Virus record (IMG/VR): IMGVR_UViG_3300036850_000087
Coordinates: 1 to 41,812 of that record
From: a virus
Strand: one strand, 5' to 3'
DNA length: 41,812 bases
Below, in pieces: positions 128-40,378 of this stretch. The notes below the pieces were generated by a model, which made no database searches, was not told the origin of the DNA, and saw nothing but the letters and a program-made list of their open reading frames with translations. How positions within the stretch are numbered: the first letter of the stretch is position 1; each line of letters starts with the position of its first letter. The position numbers and the translations under genes are program-made.

Positions 128-135
128 GAGGTCAT
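1..135 (-). CDS. 5' portion of the SLT-like lytic transglycosylase gene; it continues at 41685..41254 once the ends are joined
   Basis: The ATG at 135-133 overlaps the TGA of the upstream gene (ATGA). It translates to MTSPGIAAARKRRAARQSKRQSFYGKYRSASERRQARSRGETPKV. The 135 nt make 45 codons and join in frame to 41685 and downward. Confidence 0.6.
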   Translation of the reverse strand, partial: MTSPGIAAARKRRAARQSKRQSFYGKYRSASERRQARSRGETPKV

Positions 136-773
136 CGTCCCGTTGTGGAGAAGTGCCACCACTCTTTGGGCAGCTGCTTGAGCCCGTGAGCCTCAAGAAC
201 CCGCTTAGCAGATTGGTACTTCGGGTCGTTGGGTCCTGAGTAGTAGGACTGGTCCAGGTCGAAGGCATTTCCTCGTTCGTGCTCAGAGCGACCGGGTTTG
301 GCGACCAGCCCCGGCTTCCTTGCATGTCCGGCAGCTTGGGCGGCGTGGGAGCGGTAGGTGTCGTGGAAGCGGATCTGCTGACCCGAAGCCTTCTCCGCTC
401 GCCTCAACCGCTTGAGCGCGTCCATGGTGAACTTCCCACCCCGGTAGGCGTACAAAGGCTCTCCGGTGATGTGCGAACGTCCTACGGGTGCTCCTGCATG
501 GAAACCGGGTTCGTAGCCAGCACCAGGGGTCTTGGCACTCATCAGCTTCATCTGCGGCGCACCACGTCCTGTGGACCTGCGAACCACGGTCTTGCGCGGT
601 TTAGAACCGCCGCCTTGTGTCGCTACCACCCTCGCGGATTCGCCCCTGCCACGGGCCTGACGCCGTTCCGAGGCCGATTTGTACTTGCCGTAGAAAGCCT
701 GGCGGGCAGATTGTCTTGCTGCCCTTCGCTTGCGGGCTGCTGCGATCCCCGGTGAGGGTTGGCCCCTCGACAT
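132..773 (-). CDS. Peptidase M15 (VanY-like, LAS zinc peptidase) peptidoglycan hydrolase with a basic N-terminal module
   Basis: 213 aa. Motifs: IRFHDTYRSHAAQ, PGRSEHERGNAFDL (SxHxxGxAxD) and EWWHF. The N-terminus PGIAAARKRRAARQSARQAFYGKYKSASERRQARGRGE is duplicated in the next gene. Confidence 0.8.
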   Translation of the reverse strand: MSRGQPSPGIAAARKRRAARQSARQAFYGKYKSASERRQARGRGESARVVATQGGGSKPRKTVVRRSTGRGAPQMKLMSAKTPGAGYEPGFHAGAPVGRSHITGEPLYAYRGGKFTMDALKRLRRAEKASGQQIRFHDTYRSHAAQAAGHARKPGLVAKPGRSEHERGNAFDLDQSYYSGPNDPKYQSAKRVLEAHGLKQLPKEWWHFSTTGR

Positions 774-984: not shown

Positions 985-1449
985 CTATCGGGTGAGACGG
1001 TTGCGGGTCTGCTGTCGGATCGCAGCCACCCGCGACGAGAGGTTGCCCTTGCCTTGTGCGAACTGACCAAGAAGTGAGGTCAGAAGGTTCGGGTTCACCT
1101 GCGGGGTGGTCGCTGGTGGTGTCGTTGGAGTCGTAGCGGGAGGTGTAGTAGCCGGTGGAGTCGGTGTGGCCCCTTGTCCAAGCGTGGATCCCTGACCGAA
1201 GGCCCAGTTGTAGGCCGGCTGGATGAGTCCCCCGTAGCGCTGACCGAACTTCGGTCCCATGAAGTTCAGCGCACCTTGCATGACGCTCCACGGAGGAACC
1301 AACTGCCCCAGGATCTGGGAGAGGAAGAACTGGTTGCTCGGTGACAGCGGCAGGGCCGTGGATGGGGTCGTGGATACCGGGGTTGTGGACGCCGTGGACG
1401 GTGGTTGGGTAACGGGTGGGGTTCCTTGTGGGTTATCGGCTTCTGCCAT
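985..1449 (-). CDS. Pro/Thr-rich virion-associated protein, paralog of 1458..1784
   Basis: 154 aa with PT-rich tracts (TPPATTPPATTPTTPPATTP). It shares FLSQILGQL / LLGQFAQGKG..R..IRQQTRNR-type motifs with the upstream gene. Confidence 0.65.
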   Translation of the reverse strand: MAEADNPQGTPPVTQPPSTASTTPVSTTPSTALPLSPSNQFFLSQILGQLVPPWSVMQGALNFMGPKFGQRYGGLIQPAYNWAFGQGSTLGQGATPTPPATTPPATTPTTPPATTPQVNPNLLTSLLGQFAQGKGNLSSRVAAIRQQTRNRLTR

Positions 1450-1457
1450 GGTGCCTC

Positions 1458-1784
1458 CTAGACGACCTGACCAGAGATTACATCCCCGGTCCTCTTTGAG
1501 CCCGACTGACGGACCCTCTCACGATTGTTCACCTGTCGGGCGGTCCCTTGAGAACCCTGCATCTGCTTGAGCAGGTCGGCCAGAAGACTCGAGATATCCG
1601 TCTCCCAGAACTGGGTGACCTGCTGGGGTGTTTGGGGCTGCGGGTTCTGGGCCTGACCGGGTGTGGGCTGACCCAGGGATGCCAGGAACTGCGTGATGGA
1701 CAGGTTGCCCGGGGACGTTCCCGTACCGGTCTGCTGAGTTTGTCTTGGGAACCTGGAGCCGAAGTTGGGGATCGAGCCGATCAT
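1458..1784 (-). CDS. Gln/Pro-rich protein, paralog of 985..1449
   Basis: 108 aa. QFLASLGQPTPG and LLADLLKQMQGSQGTARQVNNRERVRQ parallel the motifs of 985..1449. ATGA-type coupling to 1781..2182. Confidence 0.65.
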   Translation of the reverse strand: MIGSIPNFGSRFPRQTQQTGTGTSPGNLSITQFLASLGQPTPGQAQNPQPQTPQQVTQFWETDISSLLADLLKQMQGSQGTARQVNNRERVRQSGSKRTGDVISGQVV

Positions 1785-2182
1785 GTCGTTCTCTGCTGAA
1801 TCTCAAGGCGGGATATCAGGGCGAACTCCGTGGTCTTTTGGAAGGTCTGTTGGTCCACCCCTGCGTAGAAGGTTGTTGAGGCCGATGTTACCGCTGCCGT
1901 AGCCCCGAAGTGAAGGGATATGCGCCCGACGTTCAGACCGTTGAGCTCGGCCGTGGACAACGTCGATTCGTAGCGGATGGTTTGGTTGGCCAGGGTCGTA
2001 GCCGTTATCAGGTTCACGATGAAGGTGGTAGCACCGATGGCCGATGTGTTCGACGTGAAGGCCGCTCCTGCCCCCGTGGAGTTGTCCCAGACCATAGATT
2101 GAACAAACGTCGAGGGTGCGATCCCGGCGATACGCCTTCCGGCTTCATCGAGGCCCCTAAGTGAGATGACGCGGGCCATCAA
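1781..2182 (-). CDS. Ser/Thr-rich small virion protein (hypothetical)
   Basis: 133-aa ORF that overlaps its neighbours by 4 nt. The composition is beta-rich and S/T/N-rich, like other small structural ORFs here. Confidence 0.6.
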   Translation of the reverse strand: MMARVISLRGLDEAGRRIAGIAPSTFVQSMVWDNSTGAGAAFTSNTSAIGATTFIVNLITATTLANQTIRYESTLSTAELNGLNVGRISLHFGATAAVTSASTTFYAGVDQQTFQKTTEFALISRLEIQQRTT

Positions 2183-2340
2183 CTCTCCTCGTCGGTTATG
2201 AGGATGCGGTCACCCTCAACCGCTAGGATTGTGACCCCTTCCTCAGACAGTTTCTTGAGGAGTTCTTCTACGGTCTGTTCTTTTCCAGGGCGGACCCATT
2301 GCTGAAAGCGGATGCGATGGTCCTGGTTGCCGATCTTCAT
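2179..2340 (-). CDS. Small hypothetical protein (53 aa)
   Basis: The ATG at 2340 overlaps the TGA of the upstream gene (ATGA). Sequence: MKIGNQDHRIRFQQWVRPGKEQTVEELLKKLSEEGVTILAVEGDRILITDEES. The longer track start (2487) lies inside 2337..3197. Confidence 0.55.
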   Translation of the reverse strand: MKIGNQDHRIRFQQWVRPGKEQTVEELLKKLSEEGVTILAVEGDRILITDEES

Positions 2341-3197
2341 GTCCGGTAGGTGAACGACAGGCGAGCACCGTCCACCGCACTCACCTCCTTGGAGTAGATG
2401 GTGGCCGTGGAACCGGCCGCTATCCCCTCGATGCGGATGGTCGCGGTATTCGTCGTTCCCATCCTGCCAGCCAGATACGTCGTCCAAGACCCGGCCGAAG
2501 CAGCAAGGGGATACGCCACGGCACCAGTAGAGGTCGAGAGGGCTACAGACTGAGCCGGTCCCGCTGCGGGAGGGGCGTTGGCACAGATCAACGCTGCTTC
2601 CGTCCAGTTCTCCAAGAGCGATGAGATTCCGACCAGGTTCATAGTCCCTGCCATAAGCGTCGTAACGGAAACCTTGGTCAGATGAAGCGTGGCCGATTGC
2701 ACGGAGACAACCGGAGAGAACCCTGAAAGATCGAAACCGATGTAAGCACGGTCGTTCGCATCGACCAGGAGGTTCTCACCGTTGTGGTTGGCTGTATCGA
2801 CGCACACTCCCGCAGCTTGGAGAGTAGAAGCGTAGACATCCTTCACCACGTTCTTGGCGTTCACGTTGAACTCGCTAACAGTGATGGCGGATTCGTGGGT
2901 GGTCATGGGGTAGGTGTTGGTCAGACCGAAAGTCAACATCTGTGATTCCTGAATCGAGGGCGAGAATCCCACGATCTGCGCGTAGTCCGTGAACGTCTGC
3001 TCTTCGGTCAGGTCGTATTCGGTTATCTCGGAGTGCGCCGTCATCACGGATTCCTGGACGTTGCCAGATGTAGCCACACCGAAGTCGGGGCCGACGACGA
3101 TAGAAGCCGGACCCCCCGGAGCACCACCGCCGCCTCCAACCGGACGGGTGAAGATGCGCTTACCGCCCTTGGTCAAAATCCCACCTCGGCGAACCAC
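2337..3197 (-). CDS. DNRLRE-type (carbohydrate-binding-like beta-sandwich) domain protein, probable fibre/receptor-binding component
   Basis: 286 aa. NLLVDANDRAYIGFDLSGFSPVVSVQSATLHL ... ENWTEAALICANAP matches the DNRLRE domain pattern (..r.yl.FDLs....v.sA.L.L ... W.E..vtW.n.P). The likely true start is the TTG at 3176 (GAGG SD, TTGA overlap). Confidence 0.55.
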   Translation of the reverse strand: MVRRGGILTKGGKRIFTRPVGGGGGAPGGPASIVVGPDFGVATSGNVQESVMTAHSEITEYDLTEEQTFTDYAQIVGFSPSIQESQMLTFGLTNTYPMTTHESAITVSEFNVNAKNVVKDVYASTLQAAGVCVDTANHNGENLLVDANDRAYIGFDLSGFSPVVSVQSATLHLTKVSVTTLMAGTMNLVGISSLLENWTEAALICANAPPAAGPAQSVALSTSTGAVAYPLAASAGSWTTYLAGRMGTTNTATIRIEGIAAGSTATIYSKEVSAVDGARLSFTYRT

Positions 3198-8656: not shown

Positions 8657-10345
8657 TTAGTTCCACCCATACTCGGCCCCTATCGTCTCACGCAGGTCCA
8701 CCCGTTCCCCGAAGATTAGGCCATCGCTACGACGGGGAGTCACCTCCCATTCATCCAGCTTCGGTTCAGTTGATTCGCACAGCACCGTGACGGCCAAAGC
8801 GTCTACGAGGTCGTCATTGGCCGCTGCGGTCCCGTATGCGGCTGCTCCGGGGGCTCCGTAGAACTGGTAGGCCCGGAGCTGTTCGTAGGTCCTTCTGTCG
8901 TGAAGGGTGAGGGTTTGTCTCTCAAGGTCTTCTCCGAGCTTTGATATCGACCAGTACTTGCGCTTGTAGTTGCCCGCAGAGAACCCCAAAAGGACATTGG
9001 ACATCTGCTTGCCGGGCCATCGGTCTGGAAGTCTGTGCTGCCAGATGTTGTCGTAGATCAAGGAAAGCCTCCCGATGGTTCCCATCCCTCCCCCTTCTAT
9101 CTCGGGGGCGATCATGGCGTTGTTGTAGAACATCCCCAGACGCGCCAACTCGTCGGCGAAGTTAATGGGGTTGATGCGTCCCTCCCAGACCGCCACCTGC
9201 TCTCTGTTGCGACGTGAGACGACGTGGGCGGCGGCGTAATCGCCCTCGTAGGAGCCCATGGTCGGATCGGCCCCGATGAAGTATTTGGCGTATTCGAGGT
9301 CGGCTCCGGGCTTCTTGAACATGCGGATGGGGCCTTTGGCGTCCTCCACCCATCTGACCTCACCGGGACCCGAACCCGTGACCAACCGGCCCCTCTGATA
9401 AGGCTCGGGTCTATAGCACGCCTCGATCCACTTCTGGTTGAAGGCCGGCATCCCCGAGGAGATGAAGGCTTCATCTGGTGACGAGGGGTATTCCTGATGA
9501 AAGAGGTCTAGCGACCCCGTGCAGTCGTTGACGATGGCCCAGCGCCTCCAGGCCAGATGGGCCTTGTCTGTGGCTAGGGGGACCTGCTCTGAGCCCAGCC
9601 AGCGAGGGATCTTTTTGGACAGCTCCTTCTCCTCTGCGTCTAAAGCTCCGAGCTCTCGTATGGCCTGGGTGCAGATGTCGCACGTCCCGTCGGTACATCT
9701 GGCTCCTGAACAGGGAATGCATTCGGGGTGAGCCATCCACGGCAGGAATATGGGGGTGTACTCAGACTCCCCTGAGGCCGCCATCTGCCAGTTCAGCTCC
9801 CACCAGTTGCCGATGCCGTTGGCCGTTGACTCGAGGATCTGGATGGTTCGAGGAAGTTTGGGGACGGCGTTGTTGAAGGCCGTCATCACAGACACGGGGT
9901 CGGAGAAGTACGCAACCTCCGAGGCATGAAGAGCTTGGACAGTCCTAGACCTAGCAGCAGTCTTTCTTTCCGCCGTCATGCAGCGGAGCGAGGAGTGCAG
10001 CTTGGAGAAGGTCATCTCGCGTCGGGTGGAGTACTTGGTTCGGAACTTGCGTCTATGACCCCAGGTCTCATAGAAGAGCTTGGTCTTCTGAAACAGCTCT
10101 TCTGTGGCCTCCGTCTCGTGGGCGGCCGTCGTGCAGTTGGAGGGGGCGAAGACGATGGCCCAGCAGAACATCAGGGCTTGAGCCAGCGTCGAGACTCCGA
10201 ATTGCCGGCCTTTGAGGATGTAGTAGCGGCCGGGGCGTTCGTCCTCTAGGTCCTGGTGGATGTGGCGGAGGATGATCTTCTGGGCCCAGTTCGGCTCGAA
10301 AGGGATAAGCCTCTGGTCCTTGGTGGTGATGTAGAGCTGCCTCAA
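8657..10345 (-). CDS. terL: Terminase large subunit
   Basis: 562 aa. The N-terminal ATPase has YILKGRQFGVST (the KxRQxGxS Walker-A variant typical of Terminase_6-type TerL). The C-terminal nuclease-like region contains IGADP...D..A motifs. Confidence 0.8.
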   Translation of the reverse strand: MRQLYITTKDQRLIPFEPNWAQKIILRHIHQDLEDERPGRYYILKGRQFGVSTLAQALMFCWAIVFAPSNCTTAAHETEATEELFQKTKLFYETWGHRRKFRTKYSTRREMTFSKLHSSLRCMTAERKTAARSRTVQALHASEVAYFSDPVSVMTAFNNAVPKLPRTIQILESTANGIGNWWELNWQMAASGESEYTPIFLPWMAHPECIPCSGARCTDGTCDICTQAIRELGALDAEEKELSKKIPRWLGSEQVPLATDKAHLAWRRWAIVNDCTGSLDLFHQEYPSSPDEAFISSGMPAFNQKWIEACYRPEPYQRGRLVTGSGPGEVRWVEDAKGPIRMFKKPGADLEYAKYFIGADPTMGSYEGDYAAAHVVSRRNREQVAVWEGRINPINFADELARLGMFYNNAMIAPEIEGGGMGTIGRLSLIYDNIWQHRLPDRWPGKQMSNVLLGFSAGNYKRKYWSISKLGEDLERQTLTLHDRRTYEQLRAYQFYGAPGAAAYGTAAANDDLVDALAVTVLCESTEPKLDEWEVTPRRSDGLIFGERVDLRETIGAEYGWN

Positions 10346-11887: not shown

Positions 11888-12244
11888 TCAGAAGATTTGG
11901 CTATCCATCCTTGCTGAATCCGCTGCTAACACCGCCTGTCGGAGGTCACGCCAAAGAACACCCATCGCCTCGCACATCGGGCCATCAAGATCGGCACAGT
12001 TCTCACAGGTTCCGACTCCATCTGCACCTGAGGCGTCGTGGTCAAGCAATGCGCGAGCAGCATCGAGAACCCCTTCGGCAAAACATCCATGGGATACACC
12101 CTTGCTTAGGAGACTCATAACAGCCCCCGCTGCACGGCGAGCAAGATAGCTAGCTTCATCGGCCTTAAAACCCGGTTCGCCTGTCGGGTGATATTCCTGC
12201 TCTATTGCGGACTGGACACGTGTTGCCAGTGTTGCGTCACTCAT
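11888..12244 (-). CDS. Hypothetical protein (118 aa)
   Basis: The ATG at 12244 overlaps the end of the upstream gene (ATGAGTGA). Sequence: MSDATLATRVQSAIEQEY.... Confidence 0.55.
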   Translation of the reverse strand: MSDATLATRVQSAIEQEYHPTGEPGFKADEASYLARRAAGAVMSLLSKGVSHGCFAEGVLDAARALLDHDASGADGVGTCENCADLDGPMCEAMGVLWRDLRQAVLAADSARMDSQIF

Positions 12245-13028
12245 GTCTTCCCTCTGCCTTCTCCCAGTCCTGCTCATCATTGATATCCAGGGCGTCTTTG
12301 CCCTCTGTGAGAAACATACCGATACGATCCCCAGCTAATGTCCCAGTTCGGTAGAAGGATTCGGCTCTGAATATCTCTAGGGCTCCGGTCTGGATGTATG
12401 CGTCCTGAAGAGACTGCGTGGGCTTCTCGTAGAGGTGCTTCTTCGCTGAGACTGTGGTGATGGGGTCCATGGTGGGGAAGACTTCTCCTCGCGTGCCCCC
12501 TGTCACGATCGGCCCTTCTTCATACGAGCCCCACTCAAGGACCTCCAATCCGCCCGTCGCTATCCAGTCCTCCAGCACCCACTGCTTGTAAGCGTGCTCA
12601 GAGGCCCTACGAACCGCTCTGAGGCTGTCTAAGGGCTGGCAGGCTTCCCACTGCCGTAAGGCCCTACGGATCGTCTCAGGGCCTCTGAAGGGGCTTGTAG
12701 GCCGTAGGAGGACGATGTCGTATCTCCCCGGAACCTGGAGGGCTTGAAGCGTGGTCCTCACCCAGTAGAAGTCCCCTAGGTCCTCTACAGCAGACTTCGG
12801 GTCTTGAGGGAGCCATTCCACTCCTAGGTCCTTGGCGATGGCTGAGCATTCCTTGGAGTCGGTGATAACGAAAACCGTTTCGGGGTCGAAGACCTCTTTG
12901 GCGACCTCTACGGTCCAGGAGATGAGGGGCTTGCCGGCTAGCTCTCTCCAGTTCTTACCTGGGAGACGTTGGGAGCCGGCTCGAGCTGGGATGAGGACCA
13001 GGTATTCAGGCATCGGTGTTGTGGTCAT
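12237..13028 (-). CDS. Acylneuraminate (nonulosonate / CMP-sugar) cytidylyltransferase family protein, NeuA-like
   Basis: 263 aa. LVLIPARAGSQRLPGKNWRELAGKPLISWTVEVAKE...VFVITDS matches the CTP_transf_3 signature (iPARggS.rlp.KN...l.GkPLi.wt...a). Confidence 0.75.
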   Translation of the reverse strand: MTTTPMPEYLVLIPARAGSQRLPGKNWRELAGKPLISWTVEVAKEVFDPETVFVITDSKECSAIAKDLGVEWLPQDPKSAVEDLGDFYWVRTTLQALQVPGRYDIVLLRPTSPFRGPETIRRALRQWEACQPLDSLRAVRRASEHAYKQWVLEDWIATGGLEVLEWGSYEEGPIVTGGTRGEVFPTMDPITTVSAKKHLYEKPTQSLQDAYIQTGALEIFRAESFYRTGTLAGDRIGMFLTEGKDALDINDEQDWEKAEGRHE

Positions 13029-15682: not shown

Positions 15683-15864
15683 GACTGACCCTCCGTCACA
15701 GTTCCTTGGGACTCGTGTGCCGCAACCCTTGCCAATGCAGCCTCACGCGCCGCCTGCTCGCTTTCGTAGCCGTCTGAGATCAGCATGAGGGGGAAGCCGA
15801 TACGGAACGCCCAATCTCCCCCGAGGCGTTCTGGCATCTGGTACACATCGAAGTCAACGGTCAT
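15679..15864 (-). CDS. Hypothetical small protein
   Basis: 61-aa ORF in the operon. Confidence 0.45.
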   Translation of the reverse strand: MTVDFDVYQMPERLGGDWAFRIGFPLMLISDGYESEQAAREAALARVAAHESQGTVTEGQS

Positions 15865-16435
15865 TGGTCGCCACCAAATCGCCGTCGTGCCATTGGTAGT
15901 CCCATCCCAGACGGCTACGCCGTGAGAACAGTTCGACGTACGGAGCGGGGCTGATGCGTTCTACGAGGTCATAGAAAGCATCGGGCTTCTCACTGTGCTT
16001 GCCTCTCGGCCAGTCGAAGCACGTTCCCTCTGAGGCTTGTTGTAGTCGGCCTCCTTGCCCGTACGGGTTACCGTGCCGCGATCCCTTACGGGCGAGCAAG
16101 AAGTGTTCGGTGTTGCAGCGGAACCGTCCCGTCCCGAGCCCCGGTTTGCGCCAGGTGAATAACACCGTGGGATTGAACCCCCAGGCTCGAGCAACTTCGT
16201 AGGCCCAATCGACGTGCTGCGAGAGTGCCCAGATATAGAGATGCGCCTGGTCCTCGGCAGGGACGGCAAGTGCTTTGATTGCCGCAAGGTCCATCGTGGC
16301 GTACTGCGCCTGTGGTGCCCCTCGGCGCTGCCCGTTCTCCGAACCCACCCAGGTCTTTCCGAGTTCAGGCGTCCACGGAGGATCAGCAACGATGGTCCGA
16401 TAAGTCACGCACATCCCCCTTCGGGTGTGTGCCAA
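15854..16435 (-). CDS. MT-A70 family N6-adenine DNA methyltransferase
   Basis: IVADPPW (DPPW catalytic motif), QYATMDLAAIKAL, HLYIWA, ARAWGF, FTWRKPGLGTG, TEHFLLARKG. The start is uncertain (TTG 16435, ATG 16414 or GTG 16408). Confidence 0.8.
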   Translation of the reverse strand: MAHTRRGMCVTYRTIVADPPWTPELGKTWVGSENGQRRGAPQAQYATMDLAAIKALAVPAEDQAHLYIWALSQHVDWAYEVARAWGFNPTVLFTWRKPGLGTGRFRCNTEHFLLARKGSRHGNPYGQGGRLQQASEGTCFDWPRGKHSEKPDAFYDLVERISPAPYVELFSRRSRLGWDYQWHDGDLVATNDR

Positions 16436-22045: not shown

Positions 22046-22169
22046 CTACCCCGACGCTCTAGCTGAGGTCCATACCTCCTGCCCCTGCTGTTCATGGCCT
22101 ATCGAATCCGGTGAGATCGTCTACCTCGTCAACGGCACCTGGTGTTGTGACGACTGCGCTACGGAATGA
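22032..22169 (+). CDS. Small Cys-rich protein (45 aa)
   Basis: GTG at 22032 with GAGGG 6 nt upstream. Motif: CPCC...CCDDC. The track start at 21987 overlaps the previous gene. Confidence 0.4.
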   Translation: MILPDYPDALAEVHTSCPCCSWPIESGEIVYLVNGTWCCDDCATE

Positions 22170-22801
22170 CAAAGAAGAAGCAGAAGCTGTCCCGCAAGGT
22201 CGCTGTCATCGGTTGTGCATGGGATTGGTGGTCCAACGCTGTTGAAACCATGGAGGACTTCGAGTTCTGGACTCTGAACAACTGTGGGGTGGGAATCTCA
22301 CGGGACCCCGACCGGCTCTATGAATTGCACTCCAAGGACCAACTGGCCTCACCAGACCGCGACCGTGATCCGAGGCACGGAGAATGGGCCGAACAGTTCA
22401 AGACGGCAGAGCAGGTTTGGTCACTTCACCCTCGCAAAGAGTTAGGCCCTCGGGTCAAGGCCTTCCCACTCGAAGAACTGATCCGCTGGTGTCCCCGCCC
22501 CTACTTCACCAACTCCGTAGCTTGGATGGTGGCTCATGCTCTGTACGAAGGCGTGAGCGAACTCTTCATCGCTGGGATGAACATGGACTCACCATCAGAG
22601 TGGATGGACCAGAAGGCCTGTCTTGAATACTGGATTGGTTACGCAGAAGGTCAGAGGGTCAAGGTCACCGTCTCCCCCGACTCCCAGATCGGCAAGTCCT
22701 CCTACCTGTACGGGCTTCAGGACCCTGCCCTACAGCGCGCTGTCACCACCAAACGCCTGCTGGCCTATGCGGCGATGGTGTTCAAGAGAGAATCCGAGTA
22801 G
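22166..22801 (+). CDS. Paralog of 37207..38121: candidate sialyltransferase/Maf(DUF115)-like glycosyltransferase
   Basis: 211 aa. RKVAVIGCAWD, FEFWTLNN, RLYELHS, YFTNSVAWMVAHALYEGVSELFIAGMNMDSPSEW, LEYWIGYAEGQRVKVTV and YLYGL align motif-for-motif with the gene downstream of the capsid gene. Confidence 0.5.
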   Translation: MTKKKQKLSRKVAVIGCAWDWWSNAVETMEDFEFWTLNNCGVGISRDPDRLYELHSKDQLASPDRDRDPRHGEWAEQFKTAEQVWSLHPRKELGPRVKAFPLEELIRWCPRPYFTNSVAWMVAHALYEGVSELFIAGMNMDSPSEWMDQKACLEYWIGYAEGQRVKVTVSPDSQIGKSSYLYGLQDPALQRAVTTKRLLAYAAMVFKRESE

Positions 22802-23347
22802 GTGCCTCACTACGACCCCCCCTCCGGTCGGTACACCTCCAAGATCCCCTCAGGCACCCAATCCTTCCGCCAACTCGTAGCCAACAAGTTCGGCTACACC
22901 CGTACCGAGGTCATCAGAGACAGGAGCAGGTGTAATCAAACCCGCTCCGAGCACTGTGAGTGCCGGGGGATCGACCTCTTCACGACGGATGTCAACAAGG
23001 GTTGGAACACCTTCTACTGGTGCATCGAGAACGCCGACCGTTACGGCATACAGAGCGTCATCTTCCGAGACGGTCAGTGGGGATTCGGACGTTGGTCCGT
23101 CTATCCCCGCACGAAGCGGGACCACTACGACCACGTCCACGTGGGGCTGAATCTCAAGGGAGCGGGAACCGTTGTAGACGAGGAGGATGAGTTGACCCCA
23201 GAAGAGAAGCAAAAGCTTGATGAGGCGTGGACGGCGTCGCACGTACGTGTCACAGACAGGCAGTCTGGCCAGCGGGTCACTCTCGCGCTGGACGAGTTCG
23301 TGATCGACCAGCTGAAGCCCGAGCCCCAGCGACGTTACGTACTGTGA
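22802..23347 (+). CDS. LAS-type (M15-like) zinc peptidase-like protein, putative
   Basis: 181 aa with a GTG start directly after the TAG. SEHCECRGID has the SxHxxxxxxD spacing of SxHxxGxAxD, and HYDHVHVGL supplies a candidate third His ligand. Acidic coiled C-terminal tail. Confidence 0.4.
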   Translation: MPHYDPPSGRYTSKIPSGTQSFRQLVANKFGYTRTEVIRDRSRCNQTRSEHCECRGIDLFTTDVNKGWNTFYWCIENADRYGIQSVIFRDGQWGFGRWSVYPRTKRDHYDHVHVGLNLKGAGTVVDEEDELTPEEKQKLDEAWTASHVRVTDRQSGQRVTLALDEFVIDQLKPEPQRRYVL

Positions 23348-23590: not shown

Positions 23591-24286
23591 TCACCTGACG
23601 AAGAGTACGTTGCAGATGGGACCCTCGTGATGGCGGCTGACCTTGTCTGCTGTGAACCCAGCATCTTGTAGCAAGGCATATACCCGCTGTCTCACATCTG
23701 GTTTGGTGTCGTCGGTTTCCACCTGTAGGGCTTTGACCGTCCTCAGGGTCTTCTCGGCCCCCTGTAGAACCTTGTCCTCGTAGCCGTCGGTGTCGATCTT
23801 CAGGTACTCAGGTATAGGAAGTGCCGCATCGGCCTTCTCTAGACCCTCTCGCTGATGGAAGACCCACCAGTCCAGGGGATGGACCAGAACCCTTTCCCGG
23901 TCAGTACCCTCACCGCCTATGGAGTGAAGGGCCGAGCCGGCTGCTCGTGACGAATACACGAACTCGATGACCTCGGTCGTATCCCACAGCGGATCGGGGA
24001 CCAGAAAAGCTTCGAGCGAGTTCAGGGCTAGGTTCTCCCTCAGCCTGATGAAGTTGGGAGCGGAGGGCTCGAAGGCCACCACCTGAAGACCTAGAGCGCA
24101 GGCGATGAGGGTATAGCTGCCCACATTCGCCCCCACGTCGTAGAACGCAGAGCCTTTCGGGATGGACTCGATGAACTCCACAGTCTCTGGCTCTTTCTTT
24201 ACTGCTCCAGCACGAAGGGTCTGCTCGACTTCAGTCTCGGCGTGGAGAAGGAGTTCGATGGGCTCGTAGTCCAGGCGGGTGATCAA
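23591..24286 (-). CDS. FkbM-family SAM-dependent methyltransferase
   Basis: 231 aa. FYDVGANVGSYTLIACALGLQVVAFEPSAPNFIRLRENLALN is the FkbM (Methyltransf_21) signature. The TTG start overlaps the upstream TGA (TTGA). Confidence 0.75.
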   Translation of the reverse strand: MITRLDYEPIELLLHAETEVEQTLRAGAVKKEPETVEFIESIPKGSAFYDVGANVGSYTLIACALGLQVVAFEPSAPNFIRLRENLALNSLEAFLVPDPLWDTTEVIEFVYSSRAAGSALHSIGGEGTDRERVLVHPLDWWVFHQREGLEKADAALPIPEYLKIDTDGYEDKVLQGAEKTLRTVKALQVETDDTKPDVRQRVYALLQDAGFTADKVSRHHEGPICNVLFVR

Positions 24287-32474: not shown

Positions 32475-32924
32475 TCACGCCTTCTCGTAGACCTCTCCGT
32501 CCTCTGATCTCCAGGTGTCGGGCAGCCCCCCTGTTTCGGGAAGTCCGAAGAAGCTCTCGGCGTGGACCCGGTCCTCATGGTGATCCGTCGAGACCTCGAA
32601 GAACACGCAGTTCGTAAGAGCCGTCACCCGATGGATGGCACCGGGGGGGATGTGGAAGCTCATACCTCTGGTCATGAGGATCTGATGAAGGGTCCCGTCC
32701 TCGGCGTATTCGACCTCAGCTTCACCTGAGGACAGGTAGAAGGTCTCGTCCTTCTCGACGTGGAACTGGAGTCCCCCCCTGGTCCCCTTCTTCATGAGCA
32801 GGAGCTTTCCGAGGTACCCGGGTCCCTCTCCTAGGATGACCTCCTTGCCCCACTCCCTCTCAAGCTCTATCGGGATGAACTCCTCGATGGTCTGAGAAGT
32901 ATCGACCCTGCGAGAAATCACCAA
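32475..32924 (-). CDS. Cupin domain protein of the mannose-6-phosphate isomerase type-II (PMI C-terminal) kind
   Basis: 149 aa. REWGKEVILGEGPGYLGKLLLMKKGTRGGLQFHVEKDETFYLSSGEAEV...IPPGAIHRV fits rpWG....l.....y.vK.l.v.pg..lSlQ.H..r.E.w.v..G.a. The TTG start overlaps the NeuB-like gene by 65 nt. Confidence 0.6.
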   Translation of the reverse strand: MVISRRVDTSQTIEEFIPIELEREWGKEVILGEGPGYLGKLLLMKKGTRGGLQFHVEKDETFYLSSGEAEVEYAEDGTLHQILMTRGMSFHIPPGAIHRVTALTNCVFFEVSTDHHEDRVHAESFFGLPETGGLPDTWRSEDGEVYEKA

Positions 32925-33909
32925 AGGAGATCAGCTCCTCTTCTTCAACGTCACGGACCAATGTCTTGCCGATGATTTCATGAACCGCAGACGGGTTCAG
33001 GCCGCCGCCGGGTGAGAGGAAGGCGATGTCTTCGGGCGTCATGACGTGGCCTGCTCTTAGACGTGTGCGGAAATAGCAGGCTTGCGACATCTTGAGGAGT
33101 GCGGTGTCCTCCTCGTCCAGGCGATGCTTCCTCCCATCCCCGACGGCGACCTCAGCGCGCCTGAGGTCCCTCACGAGTTTCTTCATGCCTTGAGGCTCCA
33201 GGGAGAAGGCGTGGTCGGTTCCCTTCCAGGTTCTATTCAGGGTGAAGTGCTTTTCGATGACCGTAGCCCCCAACAGATACGCAGCAAGGCTCATGGCAAT
33301 CCCCACGTCGTGTAAGGAGGCCCCTATCTCAATCTCCGGGAAATGCTCTCTAAGGGTCCTGATGACCCCCAGGTTCAACGTCTCATACGGAGCGGGGTAG
33401 ATGGCCGTGCATTGCATCAAAACGCTCAGGCAGCTTCCTGCGGCCTCTACGGCCCGTTCTACGTCCTCGAGGCTCCCACCCCCCGTAGAGACAACCAGGT
33501 TGGCTCCTGAATCAGCCGCATAGGAGATGAGGGGAAGGTTGGTCAATGACCCCGAGGCGATCTTGATGGAGCACACATTCAGCTCCCTCAGGAAATCAAC
33601 CGAGGGGATGTCGAAGGCCGTAACGAGGAACACCATCCCCAGTTCTTGGGTGAGGTCCTTGCAGGCCTGGTATTCGGTCTTGCCGAACTCCAAGGCCTCT
33701 CTGTGCTCCCCGTAGGTGGCTCCATATGCGTTCTCGGAGTTGTAGTAGGAGTCGTAGAAGCGCTTGGTGTAGAGGCTCTTGTTGTCCCGCTTCTGGAGCT
33801 TCACGGCATCCACACCGCATTCGGCAACCTTACGGATCATCTCTAGAGCCGTATCCAATGACCCCTGGTGGTTGTGGCCCAACTCAGCGATTACCGTGCA
33901 GCGCTTCAT
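32860..33909 (-). CDS. NeuB-family nonulosonic acid synthase (N-acetylneuraminate / pseudaminate / legionaminate / KDN-type) with a C-terminal SAF domain
   Basis: 349 aa. VIAELGHNHQGSLDTALEMIRKVAECGVDAVKLQKR (IAE.G.NH.G....A..mi..a...G.davK.Q), KIASG, VVSTGG and IEKHFTL. The SAF-like C-terminus is LRAGHVMTPEDIAFLSPGGGL.P....IIGKTLVRDV. Confidence 0.8.
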   Translation of the reverse strand: MKRCTVIAELGHNHQGSLDTALEMIRKVAECGVDAVKLQKRDNKSLYTKRFYDSYYNSENAYGATYGEHREALEFGKTEYQACKDLTQELGMVFLVTAFDIPSVDFLRELNVCSIKIASGSLTNLPLISYAADSGANLVVSTGGGSLEDVERAVEAAGSCLSVLMQCTAIYPAPYETLNLGVIRTLREHFPEIEIGASLHDVGIAMSLAAYLLGATVIEKHFTLNRTWKGTDHAFSLEPQGMKKLVRDLRRAEVAVGDGRKHRLDEEDTALLKMSQACYFRTRLRAGHVMTPEDIAFLSPGGGLNPSAVHEIIGKTLVRDVEEEELISFGDFSQGRYFSDHRGVHPDRA

Positions 33910-36013: not shown

Positions 36014-36302
36014 GAACCGCTCTCCTTAGTCCTCGTTTGGTCTGACGCAGTTGCCGTTTCACCTGGTTGGCCTTGTAGCGTGCCGTGTCCTGAACCGGTC
36101 CCTTGCCGACGCCTGTGCGGTATTCGTTGCGGGCCGTCATCCACGCCTCGCGGGCTGTCTTGATACCGGCTCTGGCTGCCTGACGTTCGGCGCGGGTCTT
36201 CCCTGCACGGATCTTCTCCCAGCCCTCAGAGCGTGCCTTGAGCCAGGCGTCACGAGCGGCCTGGCGCTTGGTCTTGGACTCAGGAGTAGGAGCCGTCATC
36301 AA
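36006..36302 (-). CDS. Basic helical repeat protein (98 aa)
   Basis: Internal repeat RQAARDAWLKARSEGW / RQAARAGIKTAREAWMTARNEY. Confidence 0.55.
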   Translation of the reverse strand: MMTAPTPESKTKRQAARDAWLKARSEGWEKIRAGKTRAERQAARAGIKTAREAWMTARNEYRTGVGKGPVQDTARYKANQVKRQLRQTKRGLRRAVRG

Positions 36303-36865
36303 AGGGTCGAACCCGTGATGAGCTGGGCCTTGACCTGGACAGCCCCCCTCACGATGGTCGTGGTCAGATAGCCCGTAGTCCCAGTAGTCCCCGAGGTGTG
36401 GGCGAAGCCAGCCACCCCGAAGTAGGAGCCCGCCACCTGAGTTGAGGCCAGCGGCCCGAGGTATCCCCCACCGGCTGATCCCACCGTGGAGTTCGTGGTC
36501 CCCAGGACATCACCGTTGACCGTCCCAGAAGTCAGGAACGCACCAGCAACCGGTCCTGCAACACAAGCCAGGAACCACGCCCCCGAGGAAGCGTTGGAGG
36601 CGAGGTCTGTGGACTGACCTGTAGAAGCTGAGGTCAGAGCCACCCCTACGAAGAGCGGCGAGGCGTTGACCGTGGTGACGATGGCTCCTGTCCCATCCGT
36701 GGAGTTGGTCGATAGGACCACGGCCGCACCCTTGGGGATGGCGTTGGCCGAGGACATGTTGTGGAACGCCTGGATCGTCTGATGCCCGCGGACGTTCTCT
36801 TGGATCTCGTAGCCGAATGCTCCCTTGCGGTTAGAGAGGATTCCTGGTGCGCCTGTCCATGCCAT
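36299..36865 (-). CDS. Gly/Ser/Thr-rich head-associated protein (decoration-protein candidate)
   Basis: 188 aa, three genes downstream of the capsid gene. The beta-rich G/S/T composition gives a DUF2190-like impression only. Confidence 0.35.
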   Translation of the reverse strand: MAWTGAPGILSNRKGAFGYEIQENVRGHQTIQAFHNMSSANAIPKGAAVVLSTNSTDGTGAIVTTVNASPLFVGVALTSASTGQSTDLASNASSGAWFLACVAGPVAGAFLTSGTVNGDVLGTTNSTVGSAGGGYLGPLASTQVAGSYFGVAGFAHTSGTTGTTGYLTTTIVRGAVQVKAQLITGSTL

Positions 36866-36886
36866 GGTGTTCTCCTAGTGCTTGCG

Positions 36887-37204
36887 CTATTTCCCGACGA
36901 GGCGAAGATGAACCGGTAGAGCCAGTCCGTCCGAGGACCGGCGGATGATGATGCCGAAAGCGTTGGATGAGGGTCCTCCGGCCGTGGTGACCTCAACCCC
37001 GATGTGACCCAGCGAGGTCCAGGCCGCCCCGAAGATGGGGGCCGTAGACCTATAGGTCGCTACCACGGACTGCACGGTGCGGAAGTGCGGGGTCAGGACG
37101 GTGTCGGCCGTAGAGCCCCCAGCTGAGGACACATCGGCGAAAAGAACCCGGCGGTCACCCTGGACGGTCTGAGTAAAGGTCGTAGCTGAGGTTAAGTCCG
37201 CGAT
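36887..37204 (-). CDS. Ser/Thr-rich small protein with no canonical start codon (candidate ATC start, or re-initiation/frameshift product)
   Basis: A perfect AGGAGG (37219-37214) lies 9 nt upstream of the ATC at 37204. There is no in-frame ATG/GTG/TTG until the GTG at 37135 (aa 24). Downstream sequence: VVIADLTSATTFTQTVQG.... Confidence 0.45.
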   Translation of the reverse strand: MADLTSATTFTQTVQGDRRVLFADVSSAGGSTADTVLTPHFRTVQSVVATYRSTAPIFGAAWTSLGHIGVEVTTAGGPSSNAFGIIIRRSSDGLALPVHLRLVGK

Positions 37205-37206
37205 GA

Positions 37207-38121
37207 CTACGGCCCTCCTAGAGTTTTGGTTAGACGAAGGACAGCTTCGGCTGAAGTGGGCACGGCGTCGTCGGGTGAGCCTTGGCCGTCTGTCTTGGCT
37301 AACAGCGAACCTTCCATCGGCTCGCCCCGGTCCTGTGAGTTGCGGATTGGAGACTCTTCGGGCTCCTGGCCGTAGCCGACATCCGTGGGCATCGTCCAGT
37401 TGAGCTTGATGGACTCCATGGTTTCGATGGCCCCCGTGCACTTGGCGATCTCGCCCTGCACCTGTTGCAGATTGGCCATGAGCTGGTTCTGCTGGCCCAT
37501 GAACTCGATCTTCTTGGCGCGGGTCTGCTCGATCTGGACCTGGAGCTTGATGCGCAGAGGCGATGTGCTTGTCAGTCCGTAGATGGACACGGCCTTGCAC
37601 AGCGTCGAGGAGTCCGGGACGTAGACCTTGAACCCCATCGACTCGGCGATGCCGATGTAGTACTCCACGGCCGGCCTTTGGGAGGCGTACTCACTCGACG
37701 CCTGCATGTCGATGCCGAACAGCGCGATCTCACAATCCGGGTTGGCCACCCATTGGGACCGGCCGTTGATATCGACCTGGCAGGAGTTCTCGTAGATGGC
37801 CAGAGCCAGCATCCAGGCGATGGAGGAGGTGTAGTACATCCCGAAGCGGGCGAAGATCTCTTCTCTGGGCATGGCTACCGACGCCGGGAACTGAGGATTC
37901 ACATCCCACATGTAGATGGGGATCTTGGTCTGCTGCATGAACGGGATGTGATTGGGGTTTCGCCTTTTAGCTAGCCCCTCCAGGTGGTGAATCTCGAAGA
38001 TCCTGGTGACCCTCGGGACGTAGGCGTAGAGGTCGTTGACCCCCCAGATCTCCCAGGACTCATCGGCATACGGAGCCTGATTCCTGGAATCCGAGAAGCC
38101 GACGATGGCGATCTTTCTCAT
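37207..38121 (-). CDS. Candidate sialyltransferase/Maf(DUF115)-like glycosyltransferase, translationally coupled to the capsid gene; paralog of 22166..22801
   Basis: 304 aa. The ATG overlaps the capsid stop (TGATG). Motifs: RKIAIVGFSDS, WEIWGVND, YYTSSIAWMLALAIYE, EIALFGIDMQASSEY, VEYYIGIAESMGFKVYV. The C-terminus is a coiled coil. The motif order resembles GT42 (CstII: VIIAGNGPS...VFRCNQ...ITSGVYMCAVAIALGYKEIYLSGID) from memory. Confidence 0.45.
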   Translation of the reverse strand: MRKIAIVGFSDSRNQAPYADESWEIWGVNDLYAYVPRVTRIFEIHHLEGLAKRRNPNHIPFMQQTKIPIYMWDVNPQFPASVAMPREEIFARFGMYYTSSIAWMLALAIYENSCQVDINGRSQWVANPDCEIALFGIDMQASSEYASQRPAVEYYIGIAESMGFKVYVPDSSTLCKAVSIYGLTSTSPLRIKLQVQIEQTRAKKIEFMGQQNQLMANLQQVQGEIAKCTGAIETMESIKLNWTMPTDVGYGQEPEESPIRNSQDRGEPMEGSLLAKTDGQGSPDDAVPTSAEAVLRLTKTLGGP

Positions 38122-39113
38122 CAGGCGGCCAAAGCGGTCATGAGGCCTTGCAGCCGAATGTTGGTGAAAACTAAGTTCATCATCGTGAGGAGCTGTCCCA
38201 CGAAGGCGTCCTGGTTGGCGGGCTTGACGAAGTCCACGAAGACCATGTCCCGTCCCGGGTGGCAGACGAGCTCCATGAAGTCCTCGTTGAAGAAGTACAT
38301 GTGGTCGCCTGCCGTCCCAGCCCTGGTGGTGTTCACGTGGTCGTCAACGACCATCGGGACGTTGTTGTAGAGCAGGTTCGTGAATCCGGCCTGGGCTAGC
38401 TGCTCGTCGCGTCCCGTGGGCTCTGAGGGGAAGCGTTGCTGGACCTGGAGAAGGGACTGGAAGCGGTTGTAGTTGTTCTGGGTCGTAACGATGAGAGTCG
38501 GGTGTCTGGCTCCCGAGGTGACCGACCCGAAGACCGCCTGCATGGCGTTGAGCGTCAGGGTCGCTGTCGTGGTGTCAAGACCCCCAGCTCTTGGCTGCCA
38601 GAAGGCGTTGGTCGTGGTCCTCGCACCAAGACCCCCGTAGGTAGCGGCTACCGTTCCGTTGTCGATGGCTCCCTGGACCCCATCTATCTCCTTGGCGTCT
38701 GTGACGGCGTCCGAGAAGATGCCGGTTCCCAGGCGGTCCTCCATCTCCATACGTGCGGCCTGCCATTCCAGGTTGAGGATGTTGGCCGCAGACTCCGGGG
38801 AGTCGTTCTTCAGGAGCGTGGTTCCGTCGATGGTGACCGAGACGTACTTCTGCTTCCAGTCATAGGCCGCGTTCTTGACCTTGTCGGTGGGTGTGGTGTC
38901 CAGAAGGTCGAAGCCCGTGAAGTTTCCTGCGGCCGTGTTGCGGGCGTACAGCAGGGGGACCTCGATCTGCGTACCCCCCCTTACCGTCTTCTTGTTGGAG
39001 CGGTAGAGGCGGTAGAAGATGGGATTGCTGCCGTAGATCTGGTCGAACACGCTCGGGTAAATCCAACGACGGGTGATCGAGTTCAACTCATTAACGCCAA
39101 TGGGTGTTGCCAC
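38121..39113 (-). CDS. Major capsid protein (HK97-fold, podovirus-type), putative
   Basis: 330 aa with a GTG start preceded by GGAGG. It lies downstream of the scaffold-like gene, and its size and sequence character are typical of T7-like/P22-like capsid proteins. Confidence 0.7.
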   Translation of the reverse strand: MATPIGVNELNSITRRWIYPSVFDQIYGSNPIFYRLYRSNKKTVRGGTQIEVPLLYARNTAAGNFTGFDLLDTTPTDKVKNAAYDWKQKYVSVTIDGTTLLKNDSPESAANILNLEWQAARMEMEDRLGTGIFSDAVTDAKEIDGVQGAIDNGTVAATYGGLGARTTTNAFWQPRAGGLDTTTATLTLNAMQAVFGSVTSGARHPTLIVTTQNNYNRFQSLLQVQQRFPSEPTGRDEQLAQAGFTNLLYNNVPMVVDDHVNTTRAGTAGDHMYFFNEDFMELVCHPGRDMVFVDFVKPANQDAFVGQLLTMMNLVFTNIRLQGLMTALAA

Positions 39114-39614
39114 CTACTGCTCACCTCCGTCAATCAGCGAGAGTCGGAATCTCTCGAGGTAGGAAACGAGGGACTTTGCCGTCTGTACGTCGTCGTCAAG
39201 CAACCCGACAGCGAAGTTGCACTTTCCGCAGAGCAAAGCTCTGACTCTTCCTGTTGCGTGGTCGTGGTCTACGTACAAGACTCCCCAGCGACTCTTGTCG
39301 CCTTCGGATTCACAGATCGCGCACTTGCCGTTCTGCGCTTCGAGAAGTTCCGCGTAGTCCTCGATCGAGATCCCGTACTTCGCCTTCAGTTGGGCGCGGC
39401 GGTGGTAGACCTTCGCCTTGTCCTTGTTCTTCTTCCACCATTCGCGTGAGTACTGCTTGACCTCGGGTCGGTCCTGGCGTGATCGCTGGTAAGCCGCGAA
39501 GCAAGGCTTGCAGTAAGAGGCGGTTCCATCAGGAGTAGAGCGGTTCTTCACGAACTCGCTCTTGGGCTTCGTCTCCTGGCAGCGCGGGCAAAGTTTCACT
39601 GGCGTGCCGCCCAT
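39114..39614 (-). CDS. Endonuclease VII-family (HNH-like) homing-type nuclease
   Basis: 166 aa. NGKCAICESEGDKSRWGVLYVDHDHATGRVRALLCGKCNFAVGLL matches the Endonuclease_7 signature (C.iC......l.vDHdH.tG.vRglLC..CN.alG). The N-terminus has CPRC...CKPC. Confidence 0.8.
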   Translation of the reverse strand: MGGTPVKLCPRCQETKPKSEFVKNRSTPDGTASYCKPCFAAYQRSRQDRPEVKQYSREWWKKNKDKAKVYHRRAQLKAKYGISIEDYAELLEAQNGKCAICESEGDKSRWGVLYVDHDHATGRVRALLCGKCNFAVGLLDDDVQTAKSLVSYLERFRLSLIDGGEQ

Positions 39615-40378
39615 ATCTCTTTGAGTTCCTGGAGCATCCCTTCCTTGCGGCCCGGTTCGTCCTTCGGAACGGGTTGAGTACGGTTGGTTGTTGCCGAACG
39701 TGAGGATGTCTGGCCGGCCCTCCTGCGGGCCTCCAGGTCTTTGGTGACCTGCTCCTGGCCGTTTTGATGGGCGCGGTCGAAGAACTCGATGCGGTAGGCC
39801 GTTTCCAAGGCCCTTCGCATCACGTCTGCGGGGTTGTGGGGGTCCTTCTCCTTATAGACGGCTACGAGCTGGTGGTCCTTGATGCACTCCAGGAGCTTGT
39901 TCAGCTCGGGCTCCCCCAGATCGGGGTGGGCTTTGTAGAAGGCCCCCATCCCTGTGACCATGGCGTCCCAGTTGGACTGCATGACCTGCTGTTGAAGGGT
40001 CTGCTCGATCTGGGCGTAGCGCTGGGAGAGTCCCCCAACCTCCTGTTGAAGTCTTTGGTATTGCGGGTCGTCGTAGTCGAAGGTCTCGTCTTCTGTCTCC
40101 GGGACTTCTTCGTATTCCTCGGAGGGGACCAGGATCTTCTCGCCCTTCTCCCAGGCCACCAGGTCATCCCAGACGGCTGGGTTCTGGTCCACCCAGTCCA
40201 TGAAGCGTTTGGTGGACTGGAAGGCTTGGGCGGGGATCTTCTGGCCGCCGAACTCGATGAACTCGGGTTCGGGCTGAGGCTCTGGGGTTGGTTCCGGCTC
40301 TGGAGCTTCCTCAACCTCCGGAGCTTCAGGCTCAACCGGCTCTTCTAAGGACTCGTAGTGCTGTTCGAGTTCGCTCAT
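39596..40378 (-). CDS. Scaffolding protein, putative
   Basis: 260 aa with a very acidic PE-rich N-terminus and a helical remainder. It sits upstream of the capsid gene in the operon. Confidence 0.5.
   Translation of the reverse strand: MSELEQHYESLEEPVEPEAPEVEEAPEPEPTPEPQPEPEFIEFGGQKIPAQAFQSTKRFMDWVDQNPAVWDDLVAWEKGEKILVPSEEYEEVPETEDETFDYDDPQYQRLQQEVGGLSQRYAQIEQTLQQQVMQSNWDAMVTGMGAFYKAHPDLGEPELNKLLECIKDHQLVAVYKEKDPHNPADVMRRALETAYRIEFFDRAHQNGQEQVTKDLEARRRAGQTSSRSATTNRTQPVPKDEPGRKEGMLQELKEIWAARQ

Follow-up and report, generated by a model that had tools for sequence, protein, structure and literature searches.

The window analysed here is the whole 41,812-bp contig of the IMG/VR virus record IMGVR_UViG_3300036850_000087, and the gene in question is a 304-aa open reading frame (ORF; 37207..38121, minus strand) that follows the major capsid gene. 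The best explanation for its product is an enzyme of a new phage-only family, distantly akin to the modified Rossmann-fold transferases of families GT42 and Maf (DUF115). More precisely, we regard this member of an unnamed phage family as a candidate for a new cytidine monophosphate (CMP)-ulosonic-acid transferase that O-glycosylates capsid surface proteins, a reading with an even chance of being correct. Its parts were graded separately: kinship with GT42 and Maf at the superfamily level is quite likely, a transferase function is fairly likely, and for the virion as acceptor the arguments are evenly balanced. The genomic context is stronger evidence than remote homology. The genome that carries the gene is, to judge from an SU10 adaptor, a portal of P22/SU10 type and a terminase-like ORF of 562 aa, that of an SU10-like podovirus.

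Association with nonulosonic acid pathway genes

NeuB and NeuA genes, claimed for this genome by an earlier reading of the DNA (hereafter the sequence-only reading), were both confirmed. A NeuB-family nonulosonic acid synthase (32860..33909, minus strand) lies inside the structural operon and matched PF03102 (E 5.6e-70) together with a SAF domain; its NCBIfam matches to TIGR03569 (E 3.9e-79) and PseI (E 5.6e-66) were both below the equivalog cut-offs. The CMP-ulosonic acid cytidylyltransferase (NeuA/PseF/KdsB-like; 12237..13028, minus strand) matched PF02348 (E 3.2e-16) and TIGR03584, PseF (E 7.1e-21). Adjoining the synthase gene is a cupin (32475..32924, minus strand; phrog_7851, E 1.8e-20), with Cupin_2 genes at the same position in the relatives L082 and L083. 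Its best NCBIfam match, far below cut-off, was the mannose-6-phosphate isomerase part of TIGR01479 (GMP_PMI; E 1.5e-5), so that it is possibly a sugar isomerase supplying the synthase. Since no NeuC-, PseB- or PseC-type gene was seen in this phage, and in view of the cupin match, it may be speculated that the sugar is Kdn-like and made from mannose, rather than N-acetylneuraminic (Neu5Ac), pseudaminic (Pse) or legionaminic (Leg) acid. An FkbM-family methyltransferase (23591..24286, minus strand; PF05050, E 1.1e-13; TIGR01444, E 9.5e-19, above cut-off) makes O-methylation of the sugar possible. Other glycosyltransferase families had no match among the about 30 ORFs of this phage that were scanned.

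This association was also found beyond the window. At least 539 loci of the family were present in IMG/VR, and the gene context was analysed for 80 of them, with up to 10 kb on either side and many loci incomplete. NeuB was present in 14 of these loci, a CMP-transferase gene in 10 and FkbM in 6. At least one core pathway gene (NeuB, CTP_transf_3, Epimerase_2, DegT or Polysacc_synt_2) occurred in 22 of the 80; among the 18 loci that span at least 15 kb, the count was 11. As a base rate, NeuB was found in 3 of 50,697 GenBank phage records. Reciprocally, 27 of 80 viral NeuB loci carried a family gene within 10 kb. In locus L038 the family gene directly follows NeuB, and in L061 NeuB and a CMP-transferase gene stand between two family copies. 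Clustering combined with Pfam further identified UDP-GlcNAc 2-epimerase, DegT aminotransferase, PseB/LegB-type dehydratase, short-chain dehydrogenase/reductase (SDR) and transketolase-like genes in family loci. The phages carrying the family do not form one lineage, since the capsid protein of the studied phage matched that of L002 alone. The sequence-only reading had called this ORF and its paralog the obvious transferase candidates, given NeuB and NeuA; its interpretation is partly supported, the family being strongly and reciprocally linked with NeuB and CMP-transferase genes in many unrelated phages.

A conserved cassette of NeuB, SDR, CTP_transf_3, a transketolase-like two-domain protein and FkbM was observed in loci L028, L029, L033, L054 and L072, where it lies shortly ahead of the genes for the portal and the HK97-type capsid protein, at a distance of about 1-6 kb from the former. 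Its composition suggests a modified (methylated or chain-altered) nonulosonic acid. In the family-positive locus L005, a 565-aa fusion (1330..3027) adjoining NeuB combines CTP_transf_3 with a C-terminal region weakly like Glyco_tran_28_C, perhaps PseG-like.

Remote similarity to GT42 and Maf transferases

The sequence-only reading could assign no named family and suspected an undescribed one, in agreement with our searches: both the 304-aa protein and its paralog were unmatched in Pfam, PHROGs and NCBIfam, and in Pfam neither had a match even at E<=1. Searches of the Protein Data Bank (PDB) with phmmer returned noise alone. When the full-length alignment was used as a PDB profile, it was swamped by coiled-coil and poly-Q matches from the C-terminal helix, and an alignment restricted to the N-terminal domain (A2) was therefore built. 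The seven best PDB matches of this domain profile were all GT42 sialyltransferases (CstII, E 0.067-0.21; 9c08, E 0.42), and all of them fell on one motif, YFTNSIS..YMIALAI.EG..EI.LYGVDMA..SEY, aligned with CstII residues 125-162.

For direct comparison, a GT42 alignment (A3) was rebuilt from a CstII sequence that is 96% identical to a PF06002 cluster. Alignment of A2 with the GT42 alignment by hhalign gave a probability of 75% (E 2.4e-5) on the central motif, and 161 family domains against 120 GT42 sequences gave 73% (P 3.1e-5), seeded on the N-terminal motif. Under relaxed settings the two were colinear, family residues 1-179 aligning with CstII 1-222. The pairs thereby aligned (family/CstII) were G8/G8, S12/S12, W26/F28, N29/N31, T98/T131, G136/G152, D138/D154 and Y145/Y162; their CstII partners are mostly invariant in GT42 (alignment A3) and correspond to what we take to be CMP-binding positions. 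Counterparts of the GT42-invariant positions tested (G8, S12, N31, T131/S132, G152-x-D154 and Y162) were all present in the family, with G8 conserved at 100%, S/T12 at 90%, N29 at 71%, T98 at 92% and followed by N/S99, G136 at 100%, D138 at 83% and Y145 at 94%.

In Pfam, PF06002 (CST-I) was matched by one of 48 family members (E 0.11) and PF01973 (MptE-like/DUF115) by two of the 48 (best E 0.064); membership of either was not found at any significance threshold. Taken together, the profile comparisons consistently favour GT42 sialyltransferases and Maf/DUF115, although the signal is weak. The sequence-only reading had likened the protein to GT42 (CstII) and DUF115/Maf and had proposed a profile-profile comparison. 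These two are indeed its sole detectable distant relatives, DUF115 being the weaker, and CstII came first in the PDB with hhalign probabilities of 73-75%; the matches stayed short of significance, however, and the lid and His188 of CstII are absent.

The full-length AlphaFold 2 model had a mean predicted local distance difference test score (pLDDT) of 85, and the domain-only model one of 94.4 with a predicted TM-score of 0.90. With the full-length model, the top two Foldseek matches were the CstII structures 1ro8 and 1ro7 (E 2.8e-4, probability 1.0). The check by AlphaFold and Foldseek that the sequence-only reading had suggested placed CstII on top for the full-length model but not for the domain-only model, which retrieved scattered nucleotide-binding folds alone. 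The Maf structure 5mu5 was outside the top 50 of both runs. In BFVD, matches for the family were uncharacterised phage proteins, plus one protein with an MptE-like name at a probability of 0.57.

Domain architecture and distribution of the family

The protein can be divided into a catalytic-type alpha/beta domain (aa 1-186; 37564..38121, minus strand), delimited by alignment A2, the domain model and the colinear alignment with CstII, a long C-terminal helix (aa 187-242; 37396..37563, minus strand) modelled with a pLDDT of about 89-96, and an acidic, Pro-rich tail of low confidence (aa 243-304; 37207..37395, minus strand; pLDDT 42-59). The conserved unit of the family is the N-terminal domain of about 180 aa, usually followed by the long helix, which most members have; the family profile reaches about position 230 in most representatives. 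In the tail, the motifs WTMPTD and DRGEPM.G are conserved solely among SU10-like relatives (alignment A1). Residues G8, W26, H45, P85, A108, G136 and Y181 were invariant in alignment A2, and K3, R37, Y96, T98, E144, Y145, Q148, R149 and E153 nearly so.

A word-indexed search of a 5.8-billion-protein database yielded 26 relatives, all of them unnamed and without Pfam domains. In a profile search of 1.84 billion representatives, 5,568 clusters (50% identity) were found at E<=1e-3 and 2,464 at E<=1e-30. The family is almost entirely restricted to phages, almost all clusters being from phage or metagenome contigs. Among GenBank phages there was a single match, in Microcystis phage Mvi-Yong1342-1 (PP496355.1, 34781..35584; L001, 7908..8711). 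This homolog directly precedes the small terminase gene instead of adjoining the capsid gene, and is annotated as 'type 11 methyltransferase', a label that is probably wrong because no scanned family member shows a methyltransferase domain. A scan of 185,579 species' genomes with profile A4 gave 23 family loci, none from isolates and all on contigs of metagenome-assembled genomes, so that no host could be assigned.

Ten of the 172 listed representatives (P0028, P0035, P0063, P0085, P0111, P0115, P0117, P0135, P0164 and P0172, all outside the studied DNA) share an insertion site between GVDMA and SEY..QRP, occupied by 100-300 aa. The inserted sequences open with Cys and close with His-Asn followed by Ser, and a LAGLIDADG-like motif (YLAAAFDAEGH) is often present in them. 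By these signatures the insertion, placed in the most conserved motif of the family, is a predicted intein, and inteins usually target catalytic sites. A Pfam search did not recognise it. Another representative, P0061 (504 aa), has an N-terminal extension (residues 1-278) with a sub-threshold PhyH match (E 0.0014), and may be a fusion of a hydroxylase (2-oxoglutarate/Fe dioxygenase) with the transferase domain.

Capsid neighbourhood and candidate acceptors

The major capsid protein (330 aa; 38121..39113, minus strand) was identified by phrog_9953, major head protein (E 1.6e-57), with a weak SU10_MCP match (E 0.0012). The sequence-only reading had placed the start of the 304-aa ORF inside the capsid stop codon, and the sequence coordinates confirmed the TGATG overlap (38119..38123, minus strand): the ATG occupies 38121-38119, and the A at 38121 is the final base of the capsid TGA (38123-38121). 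As no Shine-Dalgarno sequence is present upstream of this start, reinitiation is likely. The same reading took the coupling to imply stoichiometric co-expression with the capsid protein. The overlap is not kept in close relatives, L082 having an 18-nt gap and L083 an HNH gene and a 62-aa ORF in its place, and this inference is therefore without basis; the TGATG is ordinary operon packing and uninformative on stoichiometry. An enzyme would not be needed at capsid-like amounts. A promoter and terminator scan of positions 34000-41000 gave signals no better than shuffles, and the lack of a signal separating the genes fits a single late operon.

Across 76 loci, the typical order was scaffold (-3), major capsid (-2), a small protein (-1), the family gene, a head-tail adaptor (+1) and a connector. 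The capsid neighbours belonged to three unrelated families, P22-like (20 loci), Mu gpT-like (10) and HK97-like (10), and in one siphovirus the family gene stood directly before the major tail protein gene, with a tail-completion gene on its other side. In 45% of loci, versus 10% of the background, the -1 gene encoded at least 25% Ser+Thr. In the studied phage and its syntenic relatives the order is capsid, family gene, a Ser/Thr-rich ORF of about 100 aa, a Ser/Thr-rich protein of 188-200 aa, small ORFs, NeuB, cupin and adaptor, with an HNH endonuclease gene between the capsid and family genes in one of the relatives.

Two products of this region are candidate acceptors besides the capsid protein. 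The main one is a 188-aa protein (36299..36865, minus strand; alignment A6) resembling capsid cement or decoration proteins, with 24% Ser/Thr and a conserved TSGTTGTTG(F/Y)LT patch. Its sole PDB profile match, which was sub-significant, was 8hdt_G, 'Cement' (E 0.035), and PF22758, precomputed for two of its homologs, yielded no name. In SU10-like relatives this protein is always encoded just downstream of the family gene. With its profile, none of the Ser/Thr-rich -1 proteins from the other lineages was recovered; these are analogous to it in position and composition and are not demonstrably homologous. A peptide containing TSGTTGTTGFLT would be a candidate acceptor.

The other, about 105 aa long and also Ser/Thr-rich, is encoded by a small conserved ORF that immediately follows the family gene (36887..37204, minus strand), and is a candidate acceptor or capsid accessory protein. 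It matched ORFs of 94 and 98 aa at the same position in L082 and L083 (BLASTP, E 5e-18 and 1e-11). The alignment opens with IADLT against (L/M)ADLT, pointing to an apparent ATC start that is preceded by GGAGG at a distance of 9 nt. In the program-made ORF list this ORF is absent, or fused into a spurious ORF of 237 aa.

Proposed mechanism

In the mechanism that we propose, the NeuB-type synthase and the adjacent cupin, identified by their matches, would provide a nine-carbon ulosonic acid, which the CTP_transf_3 enzyme would activate to the CMP-sugar and FkbM may methylate. The N-terminal domain would hold this donor through the aligned residues G8, S12, N29, the T98-S99 helix cap, G136-x-D138 and Y145. 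Because the lid and His188 of CstII are missing, a different catalytic base is proposed among the other invariant residues, with H45, E144 and E153 as candidates. The sugar would then be transferred in the cytoplasm, during head assembly, to Ser/Thr hydroxyls of capsid surface proteins, much as Maf glycosylates flagellin before export. The likeliest acceptors would be the cement-like protein, the small Ser/Thr-rich protein or the capsid protein itself. For the C-terminal helix we propose a role in oligomerisation of the enzyme or in docking to the acceptor. The outcome would be a virion with a negatively charged glycan coat, and the shorter, more divergent paralog may act on a further acceptor or attach a further sugar. 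Phages without pathway genes could draw on CMP-sugars of the host, such as CMP-Pse, CMP-Leg or the CMP form of 3-deoxy-manno-octulosonic acid (Kdo).

Several observations weigh against this interpretation. No database-wide match was significant (E of at least 0.067 for the PDB profile and of at least 0.06 per member in Pfam). The CstII segment of about residues 165-190, holding the lid and the catalytic His188, is opposite a gap of about 23 residues in the family sequences, and CstII residues Arg129 and Tyr156 are not conserved there. The first full-length Foldseek match had TM-scores of 0.36-0.47 and a root-mean-square deviation of 6.5-7 Å, and the domain-only model gave no match at E<=1e-3, with CstII not among its top 50. 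Thiamine pyrophosphokinases (3l8m and 3k94) were found with the full-length model at a Foldseek probability of 0.57-0.63, which makes a non-transferase nucleotide-binding activity possible. About half of the long family loci have no pathway gene within 10 kb. Lastly, the acceptor is deduced solely from gene order and composition, and virion glycosylation in these phages is a prediction.

Alternative functions

The homology and the association with the nonulosonic acid pathway hold just as well for a CMP-ulosonic-acid transferase acting late in infection on the host envelope (lipopolysaccharide, capsule, flagellin or pili), where it could mask receptors, block superinfection or keep progeny off debris. 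GT42 enzymes normally modify lipooligosaccharide (PMC4202792), the paralog lies outside the structural operon, and the Microcystis phage homolog precedes the small terminase gene. However, in phages with three unrelated kinds of capsid protein the gene is consistently flanked by capsid or decoration genes on one side and connector genes on the other, its Ser/Thr-rich neighbour is enriched, and NeuB lies inside the head-to-tail operon here and in relatives. Nor does the sequence contain an obvious signal peptide or membrane segment, though an enzyme at the cytoplasmic face is possible, and on balance we consider a host acceptor unlikely. We likewise doubt that the same nucleotide-binding fold serves another chemistry, either MptE- or thiamine pyrophosphokinase-like or that of a CMP-sugar modifier. 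The thiamine pyrophosphokinase structures at intermediate Foldseek probability, the scattered nucleotide-binding folds of the second Foldseek run, the absence of the GT42 catalytic His and the name of the Pfam family weakly matched by two members, which refers to a pterin diphosphokinase, would all agree with such a function; yet the best sequence and structure matches are sialyltransferases and not kinases, a cofactor kinase beside the capsid gene has no obvious logic, and the pathway clusters would otherwise be without a transferase.

A non-catalytic head-assembly or decoration protein, with a helix used in a scaffold-like manner and a purely structural Rossmann-like domain, might be expected from the gene's position in the head module, where scaffold, capsid and decoration genes are its neighbours, and from the 56-residue helix followed by a disordered tail. 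Such a role is very unlikely, because W26, H45, Y181, T98, E144, Y145, Q148, R149 and E153 are invariant or nearly so among proteins 35-45% identical, a conservation of polar residues that is typical of an active site. Moreover, one conserved motif has received intein-like insertions, no such helix is present in the paralog, and the link with the nonulosonic acid pathway would be left unexplained. The least probable of the functions considered, to the point of being highly improbable, is a DNA-modifying glycosyltransferase that would protect the phage genome from restriction by hypermodifying its bases with ulosonic acid. DNA hypermodification by glycosyltransferases has precedents among phages, and this phage encodes an MT-A70 DNA methyltransferase, but the gene is part of the head module and not of the replication module, and no genes of a hydroxymethyl-pyrimidine pathway were seen among the ORFs scanned. 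To our knowledge, no ulosonic-acid modification of DNA has been described.

Comparison with known glycosylation systems

Like the GT42 enzymes (CstII/CstI of Campylobacter jejuni and the Haemophilus Lic3 type; PF06002), the proposed virion-directed transferase would have a single modified Rossmann domain of similar size. The two share the order of their motifs: an N-terminal strand-Gly-x3-Ser loop, then, behind strand 2, an aromatic-x-x-N, next a T-S helix cap, and finally G-x-D following the next strand, with a Tyr 7-8 residues beyond it. Both are associated with genes for CMP-nonulosonate supply. GT42 enzymes act on lipooligosaccharide, and His188 is the catalytic base of CstII (PMC4202792); the phage family, in contrast, is encoded beside capsid genes, has no significant PF06002 match, lacks the lid, His188 and conserved counterparts of Arg129 and Tyr156, and displays invariants of its own (W26, H45, E144, Q148-R149, E153 and Y181) as well as the long C-terminal helix.

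Maf transferases resemble CstII and link Neu5Ac and Kdo directly to the oxygen of Ser/Thr; CMP-Neu5Ac and CMP-Kdo are among the donors used by one Maf (bioRxiv 10.1101/2020.06.03.131540). The critical acidic residues of the M. magneticum Maf are E324 and D415, together with a conserved Ser (same source); the phage family has near-invariant E144, E153, D138 and T98/S100. The proposed logic is similar, in that a cytoplasmic CstII-related enzyme modifies the Ser/Thr residues of a self-assembling surface protein with Pse, Leg, Neu5Ac or Kdo, and in both cases helical regions flank the catalytic domain. In both, the gene stands beside genes of the acceptor and of the sugar pathway, the acceptor here being assumed: pathway genes and Ser/Thr-rich or capsid neighbours were present in family loci, as in Maf-type clustering. 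The family domain is, however, much smaller than Maf (PF01973; 5mu5), with about 180 aa, and has neither the N- nor the C-terminal domain of Maf.

Virion glycosylation of tailed phages is known from a few mycobacteriophages alone, in which it changes immune recognition. The systems of mycobacteriophages Che8 and Rita use ordinary nucleotide-hexoses. As described in PMC11256854 (on Freeman et al. 2023), phage-encoded glycosyltransferases modify the capsid proteins of these two phages, the glycan shield alters antibody recognition, and these conventional enzymes are encoded away from the capsid gene, close to the 3' end of the genome. Phage-encoded capsid glycosylation would be common to both cases, whereas the enzyme family described here is unrelated and its sugar would be a phage-made, CMP-activated nine-carbon acid. 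In our literature search, Che8 and Rita were the only established precedent found for tailed-phage capsid glycosylation, and the search found no paper on phage enzymes that transfer nonulosonic acids or on sialylated capsids of phages.

On the proposed reading, the protein family and its catalytic set-up are new and so is the target; the reaction type is already known. We tentatively suggest that sialic acid-like sugars, self-made or taken from the host, cover the capsids of many uncultivated tailed phages belonging to three or more unrelated capsid lineages, and perhaps also the tails of some siphoviruses, and that they are attached by a phage-only transferase family with its own catalytic apparatus. 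If true, this would represent a new class of protein O-glycosyltransferases and the first 'sialylated' bacteriophage virions, and would change views on the surface charge, aggregation, adsorption to particles and mucus, decay and antigenicity of environmental phages. It would also account for the NeuB and NeuA-type genes in phages, give a function to a very large unannotated 'dark matter' family, and provide glyco-engineering with a protein O-sialyltransferase of compact size (about 180 aa).

The paralog and other features of the contig

A second paralog with an ordered set of motifs had been reported by the sequence-only reading, and all seven motifs were found in order in both proteins. This paralog (211 aa; 22166..22801, plus strand) consists of the catalytic-type domain alone, without the C-terminal helix, and is 30% identical to the 304-aa protein over 191 residues (BLASTP, E 4e-23). 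It keeps W26, H45, T98, E144, Q148, E153 and Y181 and is substituted at S12W, P17V, D138N, Y145W, R149K, P150A and G163R, all near-invariant positions. It is encoded away from the structural operon, in a plus-strand block of its own, and a different acceptor or role is probable. Directly downstream, a 181-aa ORF (22802..23347, plus strand) was unmatched in Pfam, PHROGs and NCBIfam; its SEHCECRGIDL ... HYDHVHVG looks, by eye, like the His-Asp...His-x-His zinc motif of LAS/M15-type peptidases. A separate candidate for an M15/VanY-like endolysin is present at 132..773.

An Endonuclease VII-type gene with a Cys-rich N-terminus (39114..39614, minus strand) separates the capsid gene from the putative scaffold gene (39596..40378). 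In relatives, Endonuclease_7 and HNH_3 genes flank the capsid gene on both sides (L083, 7782..8060 and 9159..9806), and the flanks of the capsid gene appear to be a hot spot for homing endonucleases. The MT-A70 family DNA adenine methyltransferase (15854..16435, minus strand; PF05063, E 4.9e-12) is encoded in the early or replication region.

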